DNA of 64,000 bases, taken from positions 1 through 64,000 of IMG/VR virus record IMGVR_UViG_3300035184_001394. One strand, 5' to 3'. The notes beneath the pieces were generated by a model, which was not told the origin of the DNA, ran no database searches, and saw nothing but the letters and a program-made list of their open reading frames with translations. Shown here one piece after another: positions 1 through 62,558 of this stretch (the first letter of the stretch is position 1; each line of letters opens with the position of its first letter). This stretch comes from a virus. Lineage: Duplodnaviria; Heunggongvirae; Uroviricota; Caudoviricetes. A program made the position numbers and the translations under genes.

Positions 1-728
1 ATCATGTTTGCATCAATACGTTCAGCAATACGTTCTTCAGCCATTTCCATTGTAATATACAGTACGTCCTTTCCGTACATCAGATGGTTTGCAGCCATAT
101 GACATTTAATTAACGACTTACCGCCACCAGTAGTTGCTAGTAATACTGTCATTGACTTGCGAGGTAGACCACCTTTGGTAATTGTATTAAGCAAGTCAAT
201 ATCAAAGGGAACTCGTTCTTCTTTCTTATGATAGAAATCGTATCGACCTTCGTATTCTTCTAGATAATCATGACCAACGCTCGAGTCAAAACTGATACCT
301 AGTGAGTCTTGTAAAAGTTTTGGTATTGAACCCTTACCTTCTTCAGTACCATCTTTAGAGCCTTCATCATCAGCATCTAGGATATTAATTGCTTTACGAA
401 TAGAGTTATAAAGATCTTTATTCTGGCAAAACTTTTCAGTTTCATCGAATAGAAATTGAGTATTTGTATCTTTATCAACTTTCAATTCACTGATAGAACT
501 CATTATTTCAGAATAAGATGTTTCGTTTAAGTCTTTACGATTATCAATCGAGATTCGCAGAGCCTCCAATGAAGGAGGCGCCTTATATTGTTCAACATAA
601 TCGCGATAAGAATCAAAGATTTTACGGTGTGTGTTATCATCAAAATATTCGTCTTTAATAAAAGGATATACTTTTGCGTAGTATTCGTTATTATAGACTA
701 AATTAGATAGTATCGTTGTTTCCATCAT
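1..728 (-). CDS. 41: replicative DNA helicase, T4 gp41 / DnaB family (N-terminal ~242 aa; 3' end lies beyond the window edge)
   Basis: Own minus-strand translation: MMETTILSNLVYNNEYYAKVYPFIKDEYF...LATTGGGKSLIKCHMAANHLMYGKDVLYITMEMAEERIAERIDANM. The Walker A and YI(S/T)MEMAEE..RIDAN blocks match T4 gp41 as recalled. Absent from the ORF track because it is open at the edge. The ATG at 726-728 overlaps the uvsX-C stop. Confidence 0.85.
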   Translation of the reverse strand, partial: MMETTILSNLVYNNEYYAKVYPFIKDEYFDDNTHRKIFDSYRDYVEQYKAPPSLEALRISIDNRKDLNETSYSEIMSSISELKVDKDTNTQFLFDETEKFCQNKDLYNSIRKAINILDADDEGSKDGTEEGKGSIPKLLQDSLGISFDSSVGHDYLEEYEGRYDFYHKKEERVPFDIDLLNTITKGGLPRKSMTVLLATTGGGKSLIKCHMAANHLMYGKDVLYITMEMAEERIAERIDANM

Positions 729-1245
729 CTTTCATTTTTCCTGGTATAGTCAATTTATATTTACGTTCGATAAAGTTGTTAAATGTTTCGTTTTTAACAA
801 GAGCTTCGAAGAATTTATCATCAGAACCTAAGTCTTTCTGTCTACGCTTAGGTTCAACAAGCTCACCAGTTTCTTGGTCAACAACATTATACCAGCCTTG
901 AGTGGCGCCTTTTGCTATATGTCCAGATTCAATAGCTAAGTCAAACAATGCTGACCACTTTTGAATACCAGAATCATACAATACAGTGAATGGTAGTTTT
1001 GCTTTTTCACGAACAAAACGAGATTTTTCGATATTGATTGTAAATTTAAATCCTGCTAAATCAGTACCATCTTTTTCTTGAGACTTACTAATAATAAAGA
1101 TTTGATTTGCTGAATAATAGATACCAGTATTGTGTGTTACTATACCATTTTTGAGTACATAATGTTGCTCATCATAATTTTCAGTTGCTATTGATAAATC
1201 ATAAACCGGTTTTCTACCAACCTGTTTAACGTTAACTATTTTCAT
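703..1245 (-). CDS. uvsX: UvsX recombinase, C-terminal fragment: 39-aa split-intein C half followed by the C-extein
   Basis: MKIVNVKQVGRKPVYDLSIATENYDEQHYVLKNGIVTHN|TGIYYSANQIFIISKSQEKDGTDLAGFKF... Intein blocks F/G end in HN+T. The extein is collinear with T4 UvsX ..GGTGPMYSADTVFIIGKRQIKDG.. There is an AAGGAA RBS before the ATG. Confidence 0.85.
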   Translation of the reverse strand: MKIVNVKQVGRKPVYDLSIATENYDEQHYVLKNGIVTHNTGIYYSANQIFIISKSQEKDGTDLAGFKFTINIEKSRFVREKAKLPFTVLYDSGIQKWSALFDLAIESGHIAKGATQGWYNVVDQETGELVEPKRRQKDLGSDDKFFEALVKNETFNNFIERKYKLTIPGKMKDDGNNDTI

Positions 1246-1574
1246 TTTGTTTCCTTATTTCATTAAGATATAGCTTTCTAGCTAGAGCAATTGTATCACT
1301 AAATAACAGTACAATCCATTCCAACAACTAAATCTTTAGCTTCAACCCATTCTTCGTTAACCAAGAATTTATGTTTATCTGAAACAGTTGCTTTAAATCC
1401 ATCTTCAAATTCAACTTCATAACATTCTGGATTGCCATCTTCAAGTGTATCAGGGTTCCAAACATGACTTACAACTTTATCACCGTTTAGAGTAATAACT
1501 TTTTCGCCAACATTGAAGTCTTCAACATTCTTAAGACCATCTGGTGTTTGAATTTCTGTGCCTTCAACTACGCA
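1129..1574 (-). mobile_element. naturally split mini-intein in uvsX (Int-N 1302-1574, 53-bp gap containing a stop and an RBS, Int-C 1129-1245); no endonuclease domain
   Basis: Cys1 sits after the extein GG, block B TxxH-like motif is present, and the terminal HN is followed by Thr+1. The insertion lies exactly inside the conserved UvsX GG|TG motif. The halves are 91 aa and 39 aa, similar in size to DnaE-type split inteins. Confidence 0.75.
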
Positions 1575-2204
1575 ACCACCAGATACAATATTCTTAGGAA
1601 ACATACCAATTTCTTGATAGATATGATTAACAGCTAAACAAGGAATGTTTCTTGTAGTTAGCTTTGGAGTTATGATGCGAAATAAAGATTTAAGTTGCTT
1701 AGCACGAGTCATATCAGCAGCTGAGTTATCTTTCATAGCATCGTCAACTTCTTTCTTAGAAGCTAAGTTACCGATAGAATCGATCATGATGAATACACGA
1801 TCTTTCTTATCAATCTGGTCTAATCGCTTAACGATATCAAATTTAAGCTGTTCAACATCTTCGATTGGAATATGTAGTACACGTGACGTATCAATATCAA
1901 AACTTTCTAAATAATCTGGTGTAATACCAAATTCTGAATCATACAACAAAGCAACACCATCTTTATATTTTTCAAGATATGCTTTCATACAATACAGTGA
2001 TAGTAGAGTTTTGAAACTTTTTGATGCACCAGCGACAACAGTTAGACCTGGGATTAAACCACCTTTAAGTGAACCACTAAAAGCGATATTCACAATTGGT
2101 AATTCAGTCTGAATTGGTTCTTTTTCGTCAAAGAAAGCAGATTTATTTACAACACCAGCTTGTTTGATTGAACCGGATTTTAACATTTTATCTAAAAGAC
2201 TCAT
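1299..2204 (-). CDS. uvsX: UvsX recombinase, N-terminal fragment: RecA-like core N-extein (210 aa) followed by a 91-aa split-intein N half
   Basis: RecA/UvsX core motifs present (VVAGASKSFKT P-loop-like, VFIMIDSIGNLASKKE). At ..KNIVSGG|CVVEGTEIQTPDG the Hint block A begins, with block B at TVSDKHKF. The ORF ends at TAG 1299-1301. Confidence 0.85.
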   Translation of the reverse strand: MSLLDKMLKSGSIKQAGVVNKSAFFDEKEPIQTELPIVNIAFSGSLKGGLIPGLTVVAGASKSFKTLLSLYCMKAYLEKYKDGVALLYDSEFGITPDYLESFDIDTSRVLHIPIEDVEQLKFDIVKRLDQIDKKDRVFIMIDSIGNLASKKEVDDAMKDNSAADMTRAKQLKSLFRIITPKLTTRNIPCLAVNHIYQEIGMFPKNIVSGGCVVEGTEIQTPDGLKNVEDFNVGEKVITLNGDKVVSHVWNPDTLEDGNPECYEVEFEDGFKATVSDKHKFLVNEEWVEAKDLVVGMDCTVI

Positions 2205-54916: not shown

Positions 54917-56491
54917 ATGGCTTCTACTTGCATAGACAAAAATGATCAAACAACAATTAATGGGTTGAGCGTAAGTTCTAGTCCAACTACTAATTCTAAT
55001 GGTGAATATACATTAAATCAAATAAGCTTGTTTGCAAAAGAACTTGCTGATAATATTGTAGCAGAAAAAGAATCTAACCCAATATTAATTGCTCAAAATA
55101 AGTATGGCGATTCTTTCTATAAATCTGTAAACTACACAAACAAAGAGTTTCTTGTTAACAAAGATTTAACTAAATATCCAAAATTACAAGAAAGATTAAA
55201 TCAAGGGCAAATTACACCAATTGAATTGGCCGACTTTCTCACTCTTTTTAATCTTACACCTAATGGCGTAATCGCAAAAGGTACATTATGGCCAGATAAT
55301 TTATTATTTGAACTTGAGCGATATTATGCTAATGATATTAAGTTTGGCTCTCTCGGTGGGATTTGCTCAATTTTTGAAAGTGTATTCGTGAATGTAGACG
55401 GATTTTTTAACGCAATTGGAGTGATTCAAGGTTTTATTAACGATGCATTCACATTCATAGCTAAAATAAAAAGTTACTCCAATAGTCCAGAAGATCGTGC
55501 TGTAGCTGCTGCTGAAGCAATTACAGTTCAAGAGTTAATAACGAAGATTGGAGAATTCATTAGCGATGAAGTAGATCAAATGCTTAAAGCTGTAAGTTTA
55601 ATGTTTGAAAATTTTAGTATTTCTGATATCATAGGTAATGTTAATCACAGAATTAAATTATCAACTATCAGAACTATAATGAAGTGCAAAGACGAAGCAT
55701 GCCTTTTGACATCTGAAGAAAACAAACAAACTATTAGAAATAAAATAAATGGATTGTTTAGTTACGCAGTAGGCTTATATGAAAATCCAGGCGTTGCCGA
55801 AATACAATTTCTAATTACACGAGTTTGCGCTCTTATTTCTAATGTTAGAGCATTATTACTAGATTTTAAATCCCCTATGGATCAATTTGAATTCAAATAT
55901 AAAAGAATATCAAATAGATTAAAAACAATTTCCAACATAACATCTTCAACTGCGATTAGAAATGGTGCCATAAGATTCTCAGAAGACGCCAAGTTAGAAA
56001 ATATAAATAGTATAAACACCAGCTGGGAAGATAACGGTGATGTTAGTTATACACCTACTGGTAAAAAAGCAAACAATGTGAAAGAACCAAATATACAAGA
56101 ATATTCAGACTTGCCATCATGCAGCGATGTTAGAAATGGAAAAGATTCAAGAATAGAAGTTGATAGTAATAGTTTTTGGGTTAAAGATTTTGGCATGGAA
56201 GGTTGGACCGGATTAGATTTTGATTTAAGAGTATATCTCATGAGATTTTCTGATTTAGTCGGTGTTAAACTTATTCTTAAAAGAGGATGGATAAGCCAAC
56301 AGTATAACTCAAAAATTGGTGGTGATCCGGATTCAATTTATATGAGTGGGAAGACAGTTAGTATTTCAACTGAAAATATTTTTTATCTTGATACAATACC
56401 AGACTATGCAATCAGAAGCGGTTTTAAATTTGTTAAAATAGACAAAGTTAATAATCTCATTCACTTAGATACAAGGCCACTAATCGGTTAA
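54917..56491 (+). CDS. baseplate-associated protein with degenerate peptidase-M15-like C-terminal domain
   Basis: The C-terminal ILKRGWISQQYNSKIGGDPDSIYMSGKTVSIS...LIHLDTRP resembles SGYRS..N...GG...S.H..G.A.D...HvD.R, but the first His and the Asp are replaced. Confidence 0.35.
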   Translation: MASTCIDKNDQTTINGLSVSSSPTTNSNGEYTLNQISLFAKELADNIVAEKESNPILIAQNKYGDSFYKSVNYTNKEFLVNKDLTKYPKLQERLNQGQITPIELADFLTLFNLTPNGVIAKGTLWPDNLLFELERYYANDIKFGSLGGICSIFESVFVNVDGFFNAIGVIQGFINDAFTFIAKIKSYSNSPEDRAVAAAEAITVQELITKIGEFISDEVDQMLKAVSLMFENFSISDIIGNVNHRIKLSTIRTIMKCKDEACLLTSEENKQTIRNKINGLFSYAVGLYENPGVAEIQFLITRVCALISNVRALLLDFKSPMDQFEFKYKRISNRLKTISNITSSTAIRNGAIRFSEDAKLENINSINTSWEDNGDVSYTPTGKKANNVKEPNIQEYSDLPSCSDVRNGKDSRIEVDSNSFWVKDFGMEGWTGLDFDLRVYLMRFSDLVGVKLILKRGWISQQYNSKIGGDPDSIYMSGKTVSISTENIFYLDTIPDYAIRSGFKFVKIDKVNNLIHLDTRPLIG

Positions 56492-56496
56492 CTAAT

Positions 56497-56913
56497 ATGA
56501 CTATAAACGTTTTTACAAATAGAAGCAAAACTCCAGATTTATTTTCAGACTTACGAAAAGATTTAGTATTGAGTCCGTTATCAGAAGATCTTGCTGTTCT
56601 CAAGAATGAGAACGCTGTGAAAGAATCAATTAAAAATCTGATATTAACAGATCGCGGTGAAAGGCTCATGCAACCATTTTTGGGTGGTGGCATAAGAGAA
56701 TTGCTTTTTGAAAACCTTATACCAAGAACAGTTAAATCAATAGAAAACCGAGTGAGAGATACAATTGAGTTGCATGAACCAAGATGTGAATTGATAGATG
56801 TATCGGTATCAGCTAACTTAGATGAAAATTCAGTTAGAGTTATAATACAATTTTACGTATCAAACGTCGATCAACCGACTTCTCTTGATATTATTTTAGA
56901 AAGGATAAGATAA
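56497..56913 (+). CDS. 25: baseplate wedge protein gp25 (GPW/gp25 family)
   Basis: 138 aa. ..AVKESIKNLILTDRGERLMQPFLGGGIRELLFEN...RVRDTIELHEPR..L..V.V pattern. Confidence 0.8.
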   Translation: MTINVFTNRSKTPDLFSDLRKDLVLSPLSEDLAVLKNENAVKESIKNLILTDRGERLMQPFLGGGIRELLFENLIPRTVKSIENRVRDTIELHEPRCELIDVSVSANLDENSVRVIIQFYVSNVDQPTSLDIILERIR

Positions 56914-56914
56914 G

Positions 56915-58732
56915 ATGACACAACCAACAACACCAATTGTAGAATTGGATTTTGAAGGTATAAAAGAACAGCTTAAAACGTTTTTGCAAGGTCAAACTCA
57001 GTTTAAAGATTATAATTTTGACGGTTCAAACTTGAGTGTCCTTCTTGATGTTCTTGCATATAACACTTTTCAAAATAACTTTTATACTAACATGGCAATT
57101 AATGAAATGTTTCTTGACTCTGCTCAGATTAAAAACTCAGTAGTTTCTCATGCAAAAGAATTAAACTATTTGCCACGATCAAGAAAATCAGCAAGAGCAA
57201 TTGTTCAATTAACAATAACTGATGTGACAGAAACAAATTCAACTATAGTAATACCAAAGTATAGTGAATTTACTACAAGGTATCAGGGCGATACATTTTC
57301 ATTTGTAACTAATAAGACATATATTGCACGAAAAACCGGCAAAGACGGCACGTTCACAACAGATAACATTGAGATATTCGAAGGTCAGATGCTAGCAACA
57401 TTTGAAAGAGAAGGTTATTTTATAGATGATGACGGTAAATTGCGCATTGCTATTACTAATGATACTGTTGATACTGATTCAATTGGTGTTTTCATAGACT
57501 CAGAACAAACTGATGATCAGAATCAATTTACATATGCTAGTGGTATTTTTGGAATCAAACCCGAAGATAAAGTATTCTATGTTGAACCATATTTTGATGA
57601 CAAATATTCAATTTATTTTGGTCGCAATGTTTTTGGCGTTCAACCAACCGAAGTTGAAGATGTTCGCGTACTATATCGTATTACAAGTGGAGCAGAAGCA
57701 AACGGGGCTGTTAAATTTGATGCGACGTTTATTAGTGGTGCATCGATTAGTGTTGCAACAATAACAAAAGCTTATGGTGGCGCTGAGCGTGAAGATTTAG
57801 CATCTATAAGATATTTTGCTCCAAAGTCGATTCAAATACAAGAAAGAGCGATTACAACAAGCGATTACGAAATATTATTGAAACAAGCTTTCCCGGAAAT
57901 TAGTGCTGTATCTGCATATAGTGGAGATCAGTTAGATCCTCCTCAATTTGGTAAAGTTGCTATAGCTGTTTATTTAAGAGATAATACCCAATTGATATCT
58001 ACTACAGTATCAAATGAATATCTTCAATTTCTAAGTGATCGAAGCCCATTAAGTGTTGAACCAATATTTGTTTCAACTGACTTTGTATATTCTGACCTAG
58101 ACATTAAAATATATTATACAACAAAGTTAACTGAAAAATCAGTTGATGAAATTGAAGCGCTCGCAAGAGCTGCAATACAGTCATATTCTGATGATAACCT
58201 AGAACAATTTAACAAGTCATTAAGACTATCTAAATTATCTTCTATTATTGATAATCTTGATCAATCTATACAGAGTAATAATATTGAAGCTTATCCAGTT
58301 ATTGAATATTCACCACCATTAAATGTTAAAGTAAATCCAACATTTAAGTTTGAAGCTGAATTGACTAAACCTTATCCATTCAAAGAATCAAATGGTTTTT
58401 CTGATTATAAACCAGCAATTAAGAGTGGCGTGTTTGATGTTGACGGTGTTTGTGTATTTCTACAAGATGATGGTATGGGTAATATTCAAATTGTTACTGA
58501 TGACGCAACAAATCCACAAGTTATAAATCCAGCTGCTGGAACAGTTGATTATGTTACTGGTACAGTAAGATTAGTAAAATTAACAGTTGAAGATTTTCCA
58601 AACTCGGCTATTAAAATTATAGCAAGAACAGTTAAAAACGATATCAAATCTCCACAAGGTAGAGTATTCATTTTAAGAGATGATGATGTTAAAATTAACG
58701 TAATAGTTGAAGATGAAAGATCTTCTCAATAA
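56915..58732 (+). CDS. 6: baseplate wedge protein gp6 (Baseplate_J family)
   Basis: LDFEGIKEQLKTFLQ...FDGSNLSVLLDVLAYNTFQNNFYTNMAINEMFLDSAQ...AKELNYLPRS.KSA is a typical gp6/J N-terminus. Follows gene 25. Confidence 0.8.
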   Translation: MTQPTTPIVELDFEGIKEQLKTFLQGQTQFKDYNFDGSNLSVLLDVLAYNTFQNNFYTNMAINEMFLDSAQIKNSVVSHAKELNYLPRSRKSARAIVQLTITDVTETNSTIVIPKYSEFTTRYQGDTFSFVTNKTYIARKTGKDGTFTTDNIEIFEGQMLATFEREGYFIDDDGKLRIAITNDTVDTDSIGVFIDSEQTDDQNQFTYASGIFGIKPEDKVFYVEPYFDDKYSIYFGRNVFGVQPTEVEDVRVLYRITSGAEANGAVKFDATFISGASISVATITKAYGGAEREDLASIRYFAPKSIQIQERAITTSDYEILLKQAFPEISAVSAYSGDQLDPPQFGKVAIAVYLRDNTQLISTTVSNEYLQFLSDRSPLSVEPIFVSTDFVYSDLDIKIYYTTKLTEKSVDEIEALARAAIQSYSDDNLEQFNKSLRLSKLSSIIDNLDQSIQSNNIEAYPVIEYSPPLNVKVNPTFKFEAELTKPYPFKESNGFSDYKPAIKSGVFDVDGVCVFLQDDGMGNIQIVTDDATNPQVINPAAGTVDYVTGTVRLVKLTVEDFPNSAIKIIARTVKNDIKSPQGRVFILRDDDVKINVIVEDERSSQ

Positions 58733-58744
58733 CAGGATAGTGTA

Positions 58745-60910
58745 ATGCAAATAGAAAAGAACATTGCGTTTCTGGTAAATCAGCAATTTCCTGCTATATA
58801 TCGCGAGAGTGGTCCAGAGCTAGTAAATTTAGTTGAAGAGTATTACAACTTTTTAGAAACAGATACGAAGCAAAGTAATTACGTTGGTAGGCGGTTGTTT
58901 GAATATAAAGATATAGCAACAACTGTTTCGAGTATGATAGTATTCTTTCAAAAGAAATATATGGCAGACTTGCCATTTAAAGAAGAGTCTGTTAGATTTA
59001 TATCAAGAAACATAATGGAATTGTATCGTCGCAAAGGAACAAAGGCAGGTATAGAATTATTTTTTAGTGCGTTTTATAACGAAGAAATTGATATATTTTA
59101 TCCGGCTATTAAAATGTTTAAACCATCTGATTCTAAATGGAAGACTGGTATATATTTGCAGATGTTTGTAAATTCAAATTTCTTCGAATCTAATTCTGGG
59201 TTATCATATAATTATAATGATTTGTTAGGTAGAAATATAAAAGGTACGTCGTCTAATGCTAAAGCAGTCGTCGACAAGATAAATTTTGTTGTATTGAATG
59301 GTATAAGCACTGCTATAATTTATATAGAAAAAGTTCAAGGAACTTTCAAGCGTTTTGACGATATCCAAACAAGCATATTAGGTGAAGTTGTTACGTTCGG
59401 CAGAGTAAACGGATCTTTAAGTTCTTTTTTAGTTGACGATGATTTCAACAGTACGTCTGGAAATTCGGTTGGCGATATATTCGATGTTCAGTCTGAATTT
59501 GGTTTTGGTGGTACTGCAATTGTAACAAAAGTATCAGAAGAATTTACAGGTGAAATTAATTATAAAGTAGAAGATGGCGGTTTTGGATACTCAATAGAAA
59601 ATACAAAATTAATAGTATCAGATCAAGTTATTGTATTAGATAATATAGATCTTAGCTTCGTTGTTGGTGAAACTTTGACTGATACTGTTGGTAACACTGG
59701 AACAGTCGTTGGTCAAAATACTAACATCGTTGGTGTTAAAATGATTGCTAATAATGATTTTAGTATTGCTGAAACAATAAGCACTGTTAACAGAACTATT
59801 AACATAGATTTAGATATTTCAGATGTAACAGTCAAAAATTTAACATCACCTGGTCCAATGTTTGCTGATACAGGTGATGCTAATAATGTTATAGTTGAAT
59901 CACTATCAAATCAAGAAGTGATTCAAATTATAACTGATATCATCGAACCATATATAGACGTAGATATTAACAGCCTAGATTACGGGCTTGATGCAAATAA
60001 CAACATGTCTGGAACTGCTGGACAAGTTAATCTCACAACGGTAATTCAAGACGCGTTTGATTTAACTCCTTTTACTATCGGAACAATTGATTCATTTGCT
60101 AACATAAACCCTGGAACTGGTTACGAAAATGATGCGTTTACTATTGCAGTTGACAGCGTAATTCACACGCTAGAACGATATAATCAAATAGTAACATTGT
60201 CTGAACCCTTAGATGCCGCAACGTTTGTAGTAGGTGAGATTATAACAGAAGAAACAACAGGTAAGACTGGAAAAGTTAGATCTGTTAACTCTCAAGACGG
60301 ATTTATTATAATAACTCCATTTTCATATTATGGATTCAGTGGTAGCTATAATGTACTAAAAGAAAATGCAGCGCCTGGCGATGTTAAAATAGTAGAAAGA
60401 GTCGATACAGATTATACATCTGAAGTACACGGTAATAACGCAAAAATAAAAAGTATAACTGAGTTTGCTGTTGGTGCCATTTCAGAAGTTGCAATTAGTG
60501 ACTCTGGATTTGGTTATGTTGATGAGTCAGAAGCTTTCCTATTAGATGGTAATAATAATATAGTAGTAAAAGGAATAATTGAGTCTGATACTCAAGGCAA
60601 AACAGCGGGTTTCTGGTCTTCACTTTCTTCTCACATAAACGGTTATAAGGAATCTGCGAACACTATATCATATTACGATTCTGGAATGAGAATACAAGAT
60701 AGCGATTATTATCAAGAATACTCATATGAAATAAAATCGACTATTGGTATTGAACGATACGAAACACTAGTAAGAGATAATGTACACTTAGCAGGTACTA
60801 AAATGTTTAGTAAATTCTCATACAAGAATAAAACTGGCGGTGGAAACAAACCACGATTTATAAGATTATTTAACGACCAAGGTACAGGTTCACCACTAGA
60901 AGTTGTATAA
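58745..60910 (+). CDS. baseplate wedge structural protein (gp7 position)
   Basis: 721 aa, immediately after gene 6. No motif recognised. Confidence 0.35.
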   Translation: MQIEKNIAFLVNQQFPAIYRESGPELVNLVEEYYNFLETDTKQSNYVGRRLFEYKDIATTVSSMIVFFQKKYMADLPFKEESVRFISRNIMELYRRKGTKAGIELFFSAFYNEEIDIFYPAIKMFKPSDSKWKTGIYLQMFVNSNFFESNSGLSYNYNDLLGRNIKGTSSNAKAVVDKINFVVLNGISTAIIYIEKVQGTFKRFDDIQTSILGEVVTFGRVNGSLSSFLVDDDFNSTSGNSVGDIFDVQSEFGFGGTAIVTKVSEEFTGEINYKVEDGGFGYSIENTKLIVSDQVIVLDNIDLSFVVGETLTDTVGNTGTVVGQNTNIVGVKMIANNDFSIAETISTVNRTINIDLDISDVTVKNLTSPGPMFADTGDANNVIVESLSNQEVIQIITDIIEPYIDVDINSLDYGLDANNNMSGTAGQVNLTTVIQDAFDLTPFTIGTIDSFANINPGTGYENDAFTIAVDSVIHTLERYNQIVTLSEPLDAATFVVGEIITEETTGKTGKVRSVNSQDGFIIITPFSYYGFSGSYNVLKENAAPGDVKIVERVDTDYTSEVHGNNAKIKSITEFAVGAISEVAISDSGFGYVDESEAFLLDGNNNIVVKGIIESDTQGKTAGFWSSLSSHINGYKESANTISYYDSGMRIQDSDYYQEYSYEIKSTIGIERYETLVRDNVHLAGTKMFSKFSYKNKTGGGNKPRFIRLFNDQGTGSPLEVV

Positions 60911-60944
60911 ATAAACAAAAATGTAATTGGAATTCGAGCGAATC

Positions 60945-62558
60945 ATGGCAGAAATATTAACAACTAATTTTAAAACTGATACTACTAAATTATTTACTGC
61001 GAGCGCGCTTAGTAGTGAATATTACCTGTTTGCTTCTAGTATAAATGCTACTGTATCAAATAATGGAATGCGATCAACAAACAACTTTCTAGAGAACACG
61101 TTGTTTGGTAAGAAAGTATTAAACGAAAATAAGTTATTTATGATTAAATATTATCCATGGCAAAGCGGCTTGGTTTATACTCAATACGACGACATAGAAG
61201 ATTTAGAAGATGTTAATTTCTATAGTGTTGTCGGACCAAACAGTAATGATACAGGTGATTATAGAGTATACAAATGTTTAAATAACAATTTTGGTGCAAA
61301 AGTTTCAAGTCCCCCAAATTATAGCGGAGTTACAGTAGATCAAATATATAGAACCGCTGATGGTTATGTTTGGAAGCACATGTATGCGTTAACTGAAATT
61401 GAATTTGACGCGTATAACGCTATCGGATATATTCCAATAATTGGCTCTTTTGATATTTCACCACAACATATAACCAACGGATCTCCGATATCAGACATAA
61501 TTGTGGAAAACATAGATTCTAATAATGGATATACTGTAGATACTGGAACTATAGAAACGGTATACGCCGCCGGTAGCGCTAAACAAGACGAAATGCAAAT
61601 GCGACCTACAACTGAGTTAAATCAAACATTAAATTATTATGTCGGCCAGAGTATCTATATAACAAATACTAGTGGTGTATCGTTTCTTTTTGAAGTTACA
61701 TATTATTCATACGGTGTTGGTGGTTTACCAGTTATTAGTGTAGATGTAACTAACGGAACACCAAACTCGCTTGGGATTCTTAGAGGAGCAACTTTTAGCT
61801 TCTTACCAAGAATAGAAATATTGGGTGACGGTACTGGTGCTCAGGCTGTACCTAACATATCAAACAGCAAAATAAATTCAATCAGTATACTAAATAGTGG
61901 TACTGGTTATAACAATTTATCAGTCAGAGTTGTTGATCCAGAATTTAACTTCGATCCTGAAAATGCTAACACTGTTGAGATAAGCGCTGAAGTAAGAGGA
62001 ATACTTGCACCAAAAGATGGTCATGCTTATAACTTATTAGAAGAATTTAAATGCAGACACATGTTATTATATGCATATATTACAGCGGATAATAACAATA
62101 ATATTGGTGCGACAAACACATATGGTACCGTGGGATTTGTGAAGAATCCAGAGTTTGCAAATACATCACCAGCTGTGTTTGATAATAGAATAGCAGTTAC
62201 TACAGACGATATTGGATCTGTATTAGTAAACACAATAATAACTCAAGTTGACAATAACAATAAAACTATTTTTTCCGGCAAAGTTCACGAAGTTAATCTA
62301 TCGACTAATACGATGTACATCGCTGAGCATTGCGGTCCATACCAAAATGTTGGCAATACAAGCATATCATTTAGTGAAGATTATCCATTTAGATCTGAAA
62401 CAGGTCAAACAATTAATATAAATACACCTATAAATACAAATGTAATAACACCAGAATACACACAAAGAACCGGTGAAGTATACTTTATGGAAGATTTCTT
62501 CCCACTGGATAGAAACATTTTATCAAGAGAAGAGTTTAAACTTGTTCTGGAATTTTAA
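60945..62558 (+). CDS. baseplate wedge structural protein (gp8 position)
   Basis: ORF track, trimmed to the ATG at 60945 (MAEILTTNF...). Assignment by context only. Confidence 0.35.
   Translation: MAEILTTNFKTDTTKLFTASALSSEYYLFASSINATVSNNGMRSTNNFLENTLFGKKVLNENKLFMIKYYPWQSGLVYTQYDDIEDLEDVNFYSVVGPNSNDTGDYRVYKCLNNNFGAKVSSPPNYSGVTVDQIYRTADGYVWKHMYALTEIEFDAYNAIGYIPIIGSFDISPQHITNGSPISDIIVENIDSNNGYTVDTGTIETVYAAGSAKQDEMQMRPTTELNQTLNYYVGQSIYITNTSGVSFLFEVTYYSYGVGGLPVISVDVTNGTPNSLGILRGATFSFLPRIEILGDGTGAQAVPNISNSKINSISILNSGTGYNNLSVRVVDPEFNFDPENANTVEISAEVRGILAPKDGHAYNLLEEFKCRHMLLYAYITADNNNNIGATNTYGTVGFVKNPEFANTSPAVFDNRIAVTTDDIGSVLVNTIITQVDNNNKTIFSGKVHEVNLSTNTMYIAEHCGPYQNVGNTSISFSEDYPFRSETGQTININTPINTNVITPEYTQRTGEVYFMEDFFPLDRNILSREEFKLVLEF

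Follow-up and report, generated by a model that had tools for sequence, protein, structure and literature searches.

A split, endonuclease-free intein in the uvsX recombinase gene of a T4-like phage, with an apparent remnant of a homing-endonuclease cassette

The recombinase gene uvsX is divided between two adjacent open reading frames (ORFs) in the Caudoviricetes virus record IMGVR_UViG_3300035184_001394, of which we analysed positions 1 to 64,000 (hereafter the window). The locus raises two questions: how one UvsX protein could be made from two pieces, and how the gene came to be broken. Both ORFs lie on the minus strand, and each carries one extein part and one intein part. ORF 1299..2204 encodes 301 residues, comprising 210 residues of UvsX N-extein and a 91-residue N-terminal intein half (IntN); ORF 703..1245 encodes 180 residues, comprising a 39-residue C-terminal intein half (IntC) and 141 residues of C-extein. 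We propose that the element is a naturally split, endonuclease-free class-1 mini-intein (91+39 residues), derived by deletion and seated at the GG/TG motif of a T4-like phage UvsX (the slash marks the insertion point). We put the probability of this reading, which is drawn from sequence comparison, at about 0.8.

The N-extein (1575..2204, minus strand), 210 codons ending in ...MFPKNIVSGG, contains the RecA-type ATPase core and is assigned by Pfam RecA, NCBIfam recA, tblastn coordinates and the alignment with T4 UvsX (3IO5). The protein then runs into IntN (1302..1574, minus strand) as ...KNIVSGG/CVVEGTEI... and closes with ...GMDCTVI before a TAG stop (1299..1301, minus strand), read directly from the sequence. 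The other ORF begins with IntC (1129..1245, minus strand), which spans MKIVNVKQ...NGIVTHN, and passes into the C-extein (703..1128, minus strand; 141 codons plus stop) as MKIVNVKQVGRKPVYDLSIATENYDEQHYVLKNGIVTHN/TGIYYSANQ, with threonine as the first extein residue (Thr+1); T4_UVSX_C, recA and the 3IO5 alignment support the C-extein assignment. Excising both intein halves in silico gives a UvsX of 351 residues that holds the RecA ATPase core and the UvsX C-terminal domain (Pfam RecA in ORF 1299..2204, T4_UVSX_C in ORF 703..1245). This product aligns with 3IO5 at E=6.7e-95 (residues 29-336) with no gap at the junction, where ...fpknivsgg/tgiyysanq... of the window faces ...fsktvmggg/tgpmysadt... 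of T4. The insertion site is the conserved GG/TG motif, and removal of the intein restores a colinear UvsX. Of the 80 closest IMG/VR loci, 70 have an unbroken uvsX whose exteins abut exactly at this site; a hit to Paraglaciecola GD virus 1 was rejected, its uvsX being uninterrupted. A sequence-only reading of the window had described the two-ORF layout, the halves of 91 and 39 residues, a 53-nucleotide gap with an AAGGAA, the terminal HN plus Thr+1, the restored junction and the 351-residue product. Direct inspection, in silico splicing and the gap-free alignment bear this description out, and each of its numbers (ORF, spacer, half and product lengths) is correct.

That the interrupting sequence is an intein follows from profile and pairwise comparisons, both of which the sequence-only reading had proposed. 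Among Hint-domain profiles, NCBIfam intein_Cterm scores above its cutoff (24.2 vs 15.6 bits) and intein_Nterm slightly under it (21.4 vs 24.5 bits), and Pfam Hint_2 gives a sub-threshold match in ORF 1299..2204. Among known split inteins, the joined halves match the gp41-1 crystal structure 6QAZ over their full length (phmmer E=2.4e-5), and a profile built from 11 family members aligns with gp41-1 at 97.7% probability (hhalign E=2.4e-12, 28% identity). In both alignments the ORF break coincides with the gp41-1 split point. The intein_Cterm score and the gp41-1 profile match place the resemblance to inteins far beyond chance. Although the 11 members are only 50-76% identical, none of them departs from C1, S65-x-x-H68 (block B), D107 and H119 (block F), H129-N130 (block G) or Thr+1; C1 and S65-x-x-H68 are common to gp41-1 also, and the +1 residue, T131, is constant within the uvsX intein family and Ser in gp41-1. 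The ORFs break between blocks B and F, the canonical position of endonuclease insertion. IntN is strongly acidic (net charge -14) and the first 14 residues of IntC are basic (net +4), a charge complementarity typical of split inteins. The sequence-profile evidence is strong, and the structural evidence for a HINT fold only supportive: the AlphaFold2 model of the fused intein, made from a shallow alignment, has a mean predicted local distance difference test score (pLDDT) of 61, with the IntC region below 50 (the run without alignment gave 39). The top Foldseek matches of this weak model are all inteins, at template modelling (TM) scores of only 0.3-0.4.

Both halves are under purifying selection, similar to that in most extein comparisons. 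In pairwise Nei-Gojobori comparisons, the proportion of nonsynonymous differences (pN) is far below that of synonymous differences (pS), with omega about 0.05-0.22 in IntN and 0.04-0.14 in IntC. Most extein values fall within 0.03-0.11, and some for the C-extein reach 0.33; all these values are rough because synonymous divergence (dS) is saturated. Given the invariant catalytic residues, the low pN relative to pS in both halves and the shared gp41-1 split point, production of UvsX by trans-splicing is the best-supported reading, and the split intein is genuine and most likely functional. In the mechanism that we propose, the HINT fold would form by association of IntN, which is acidic, with the basic N-terminal stretch of IntC. 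An N-S acyl shift at Cys1 would then be followed by trans-esterification onto the Thr+1 hydroxyl, cyclisation of Asn130 and an O-N shift, which would yield the 351-residue UvsX and free the intein halves. The predicted ligated junction peptide is ...NIVSGG-TGIYYSANQ..., also written ...NIVSGGTGIYYSANQ....

The two halves do not share their closest relatives. Window IntN is 80% identical to that of the L015 type and 56% to that of L009, an endonuclease-bearing relative; for window IntC the values are 56% with L015 and 90% with L009. The two halves appear to differ in history, and the discordance points to recombination or co-conversion between them around the endonuclease site.

Several points weigh against our reading. 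Splicing activity is judged from conservation, the omega values are imprecise for the reason given above, and the structural model is poor both in confidence and in its TM-scores. The IntN/IntC pair may be recombinant, so that its compatibility is an assumption. Thr+1 serves as the nucleophile less often than Cys or Ser, yet it is invariant in the uvsX intein family. An alternative is that the halves no longer splice, so that UvsX would either work as two chains which the intein halves keep together without a covalent bond, or come from a gene that is decaying; the apparently different lineages of the halves count in favour of this. Endonuclease-fractured genes whose products assemble non-covalently are known from work cited in PMC2677866, where the split NrdA of phage Aeh1 is cited as assembling without an intein. 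We nevertheless consider a non-splicing UvsX quite improbable: the catalytic residues, which are needed solely for splicing, are all invariant, purifying selection on both halves is as strong as on the exteins, and uvsX belongs to the core genes of T4-like phages, and the window holds no second copy of it. In addition, the break falls inside GG/TG, close beside the DNA-binding region, and an insertion of 130 residues would be unlikely to be tolerated there.

Signals for independent translation of the C-terminal piece are present. The spacer between the ORFs (1246..1298, minus strand) is 53 nucleotides long, non-coding and without intein or endonuclease sequence. A Shine-Dalgarno AAGGAA (1251..1256, minus strand), found by direct reading and also kept in L009, lies 5 nucleotides 5' of the IntC ATG, and a TAA stands in the IntC frame four codons 5' of that ATG. 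The two ORFs occupy different reading frames, and the IntN frame has further stop codons directly past its TAG. A scan of the spacer predicted neither a sigma-70-type promoter nor an intrinsic terminator, and the spacer with its flanks folds no better than shuffled controls (z=0.32). The simplest arrangement, given the absence of such a promoter or terminator between the ORFs and of any outstanding RNA structure, is that they are co-transcribed and translated independently. Phage-specific promoters were checked by eye: the T4 late promoter (TATAAATA) is absent from the spacer, and a weak MotA-box-like ATTGCTCTA sighted there is not claimed. Gene-60-style bypassing of the 53-nucleotide gap was rejected, likewise by eye and not by a systematic test: there is no matching take-off/landing codon before the ATG, IntC begins at a conserved Met with its own ribosome-binding site, and the spacers of relatives are about 900 nucleotides long.

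Is the break itself real? The arrangement recurs on contigs from other samples: L010 (Joint Genome Institute (JGI) sample 3300038734) is 100% identical over 2296 nucleotides of the locus, and L011 (sample 3300034736) is 99.94% identical over 1625 nucleotides. The ENA contig P0001, in addition, encodes an identical IntN end. These recurrences make it very unlikely that the break arose as a single error of assembly. An artefact would imply that the true gene is a contiguous, cis-splicing mini-intein and that the stop, the spacer and the frame shift are assembly or sequencing errors. Contiguous forms do exist. Our metagenome profile scan gave 191 confirmed matches, of which the best 80 were classified, so that the class proportions are biased: 10 loci have a contiguous cis mini-intein at the same site, 13 are split and endonuclease-free with spacers of 23-138 nucleotides, three carry endonuclease fragments in spacers of 213-298 nucleotides, and 54 have endonuclease-sized spacers of 714-1410 nucleotides. 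In one split/contiguous pair the two forms are separated by a single 30-nucleotide indel. The artefact explanation is hardly credible all the same, and already largely refuted. The same 53-nucleotide spacer is present in L010 and L011; it shares homology with an endonuclease-cassette tail and not with intein sequence; the ORFs lie in different frames with several stop codons between them; and IntC begins with MK(I/V) and a ribosome-binding site, as in all split relatives. The 13 other loci with short endonuclease-free spacers count against an artefact as well.

The indel pair deserves description in its own right. The contiguous L117 (4267-4340) and the split L123 (3320-3420, with a 36-nucleotide spacer) have identical flanks and differ by the single 30-nucleotide indel (TAAGATTCAGAATAATATAAAATGTAAAAA); in L117 the former ribosome-binding site, GAGGAAATT, is read as a linker E-E-I before the IntC Met. 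L118 and L121 are likewise contiguous. The pair looks like a natural re-fusion (or splitting) of the intein by one indel.

How, then, did the spacer arise? The sequence-only reading had excluded an endonuclease from the gap, and a homology search agrees, with no endonuclease homologue in the spacer or elsewhere in the 64-kb window and hence no relocated copy found there. A likely answer comes from the closest relative with both halves (L009/L012/L013), whose N-extein, IntC and C-extein are 90%, 90% and 85% identical to those of the window. The L009 spacer is 895 nucleotides long and encodes a 229-residue endonuclease-like ORF, with weak, below-cutoff matches to the DNA-binding domains of I-TevI and I-HmuI, and a 54-residue ORF that overlaps the start of IntC. 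DNA homology between the window and L009 ends at the IntN stop and restarts 58 nucleotides 5' of the IntC ATG. The window spacer matches the 3' end of the 54-residue ORF, directly 5' of IntC, at 45 of its 53 nucleotides (85%) without a gap. Translation of the stretch 1235..1303 (minus strand), which overlaps both the IntN stop and the IntC start, gives the last 23 residues of the 54-residue ORF at 78% identity (tblastn E=1.6e-8). Since the spacer matches the terminal 3' part of the L009 cassette, the window is best read as a deletion derivative. The structure given by the sequence-only reading stands, and what it missed is the likely origin of the spacer as a cassette remnant.

Most likely, then, the window derives by deletion from an endonuclease-bearing fractured allele and represents step III of the scheme of Dassa et al. 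2009 (PMC2677866), as gp41-7 does. The ancestral fractured uvsX allele would have had a free-standing homing-endonuclease cassette inside the intein, and this would have been deleted except for its last ~55 nucleotides, from which IntC would still take its ribosome-binding site and start context. The reverse order, in which a split intein with a short spacer came first and L009-like relatives gained their cassettes later, departs from this solely in which way a single evolutionary step ran, and repeated invasion is clear, since in different relatives the position is occupied by no fewer than three to four endonuclease types that are unrelated to one another. We judge the reverse order unlikely. 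The spacer matches the in-frame coding 3' end of the 54-residue ORF, with the same stop and with differences that are mostly synonymous or conservative; the short spacers of L113, L126, L141, L132 and L124 keep zinc-finger tails or 5' plus 3' fragments, which shows deletion under way; and in the Dassa model it is the invading element that brings the stop codon, the ribosome-binding site and the ATG (PMC2677866).

Deletion has occurred more than once. In L113, L126 and L141 the short spacers still code for ...C..C...RWHFDNCK, the zinc-finger tail that marks a Seg-like endonuclease, and this shows that deletions took place independently. Together with the 13 endonuclease-free loci among the best 80 of 191 matches, these tails make the state of the window a recurrent stage, not an oddity. 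The spacer is more conserved between the window and L009 (85% of nucleotides) than is the coding DNA on either side (76-79%). Either constraint on the region where translation starts or a recent exchange is suggested, and the sample is too small to decide between the two.

Sequenced phages carry the same element. A tblastn search located this IntN, inserted at the identical position of uvsX, in 25 records that represent about 18 distinct T4-like phages, which infect Escherichia, Salmonella, Shigella, Klebsiella, Enterobacter, Yersinia, Proteus, Pseudomonas, Shewanella and Vibrio. In every phage record inspected, the halves lie 500-1070 nucleotides apart with a free-standing homing endonuclease gene between them; among these genes are a Seg-like GIY-YIG type with NUMOD3, a canonical GIY-YIG type (Thanatos-1) and a decayed copy (vB_VmeM-32). 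Yersinia phage vB_YenM_TG1, Escherichia phage HY03, Proteus phage Pm5461, Shewanella phage Thanatos-1, Pseudomonas phage PspYZU05 and Vibrio phage vB_VmeM-32 are examples, each with a fractured uvsX in two ORFs and homologous halves at the same GG/TG. The IntN and IntC of these phages are 46-67% identical to the window halves; unlike the window, their 500-1070-nucleotide spacers hold a GIY-YIG/Seg-like endonuclease gene (decayed in vB_VmeM-32). The records annotate the uvsX pieces as separate RecA-like proteins, and that of vB_VmeM-32 mentions a "HintC" domain.

In this last phage, which is cultured (KU160494.1; L004:3279-3793), the 501-nucleotide spacer holds a decaying endonuclease, a Seg-like ORF broken into a 140-residue N-part and an 89-residue C-part in another frame, and the locus is an intermediate towards the state of the window. 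The unrelated endonuclease ORFs at the identical split point, of at least three to four types, occur in L001-L007, L009, L014 and L015: Seg-like GIY-YIG with NUMOD3 and a C-terminal zinc finger, the canonical GIY-YIG of Thanatos-1, the 229-residue ORF of L009 and a 497-residue ORF in L014. Small ORFs of 54-61 residues precede IntC in L005, L006 and L009.

Among known systems the closest parallel in kind is gp41-7. Dassa et al. 2009 (PMC2677866) defined the "fractured gene" as one with a free-standing homing endonuclease gene between split-intein halves and placed endonuclease loss at step III; their list of host genes does not include uvsX, and it has one endonuclease-free locus, gp41-7. Between the window halves there is no such endonuclease, and in the relatives there is one, which puts the window in the step III state. 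Like gp41-7 (PMC2677866), the window has a mini-intein in a replication/recombination gene of a T4-like phage, two adjacent ORFs and the loss of an endonuclease present in sister alleles. The host genes differ, uvsX here and the gp41 helicase there. The remnants differ as well, since gp41-7 keeps a hairpin from the 5' side of its endonuclease, whereas the window keeps the 3' end of the cassette with no hairpin predicted; with no folding signal in the spacer (z=0.32), a translational hairpin of the gp41-7 type is not evident.

The closest solved structure is that of gp41-1 (6QAZ/6RIZ), with halves of 88+37 residues against 91+39 in the window, the same split point, the S-x-x-H of block B and a THN C-terminus. 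It belongs, however, to a different family (28% identity) and another host gene, has Ser where the window has Thr+1, and lacks the extra WNPDTLEDG.PEC segment of the uvsX intein family. The DnaE split inteins (Ssp/Npu) resemble the window in being endonuclease-free and class-1, with an acidic IntN, a basic IntC and an essential DNA-metabolism enzyme as host, although sequence similarity is weak (4KL6, E=0.004). Their halves lie at distant loci (step IV of Dassa), those of the window 53 nucleotides apart and probably in one operon. The Mtu RecA inteins share a RecA-family host, and their HINT folds (3IFJ, 2IMZ) are matched by the weak AlphaFold2 model, but they are contiguous and show no specific sequence relationship. 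Mycobacterial RecA inteins contain an endonuclease domain and occupy other insertion sites.

The window adds an endonuclease-free uvsX split intein, with a probable cassette scar and a widespread family behind it, to a known kind of element, that of Dassa step III, and no concept is changed. The sequence-only reading knew of no described uvsX split intein at this site, in agreement with our search of the open-access literature (subscription-only papers lay outside it), which found no description of a uvsX intein. The element is nevertheless no one-off, being present in about 18 T4-like phages and many metagenomic loci, mostly with an endonuclease.

For phage biology, our reading means that a core recombination enzyme most likely exists only after protein trans-splicing. 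For intein evolution, the locus and its relatives give sequence-level support, at one site, for endonuclease loss from a fractured gene as the Dassa model has it. In biotechnology, a compact 91+39-residue split intein with Thr+1, a distant relative of gp41-1 that has dozens of natural variants, could serve as a source of new or orthogonal ligation tools. At the uvsX GG/TG site we see an empty site, a cis mini-intein, an endonuclease-fractured gene, a decaying endonuclease, the endonuclease-free split of the window, an apparent re-fusion by a 30-nucleotide deletion and a doubly fractured gene in three pieces. We raise, as a tentative idea that we hold to be possible but on balance doubtful, that every stage in the life cycle of a split intein exists here side by side, with fast interconversion, the window pair being a still-splicing chimera of two lineages and the endonuclease-free state a stable, selected end-point and not a transient one. 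If this were true, a chimeric pair that splices would imply broad natural cross-compatibility within the uvsX intein family.

Around the split gene, positions 2205-27492 and 54917-62558 hold a T4-like replication/recombination module and then baseplate genes, with gp32, a family-B DNA polymerase, an SMC/gp46-like ATPase, the UvsW helicase, topoisomerase II subunits and a gp6-like baseplate wedge protein. The ten largest ORFs gave no further intein signal.

The uvsX gene is a hot spot for nested selfish elements; in T4 it is cut by SegA (PMC2988022). In two metagenomic loci (L092:3072-6929 and L093:1-3372; JGI samples 3300075147 and 3300078404) uvsX is in three pieces, arranged as UvsX-N with IntN(a), a 331-residue endonuclease ORF, a 140-residue ORF, a 304-residue endonuclease ORF and IntC(b) with UvsX-C. 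The 140-residue middle ORF consists of IntC(a), an 11-residue extein (SMYPKAIVSGG) and IntN(b), so that two different split inteins stand 11 residues apart. The same middle-piece layout is found in four further metagenomic proteins (P0005, P0014, P0015 and P0019).

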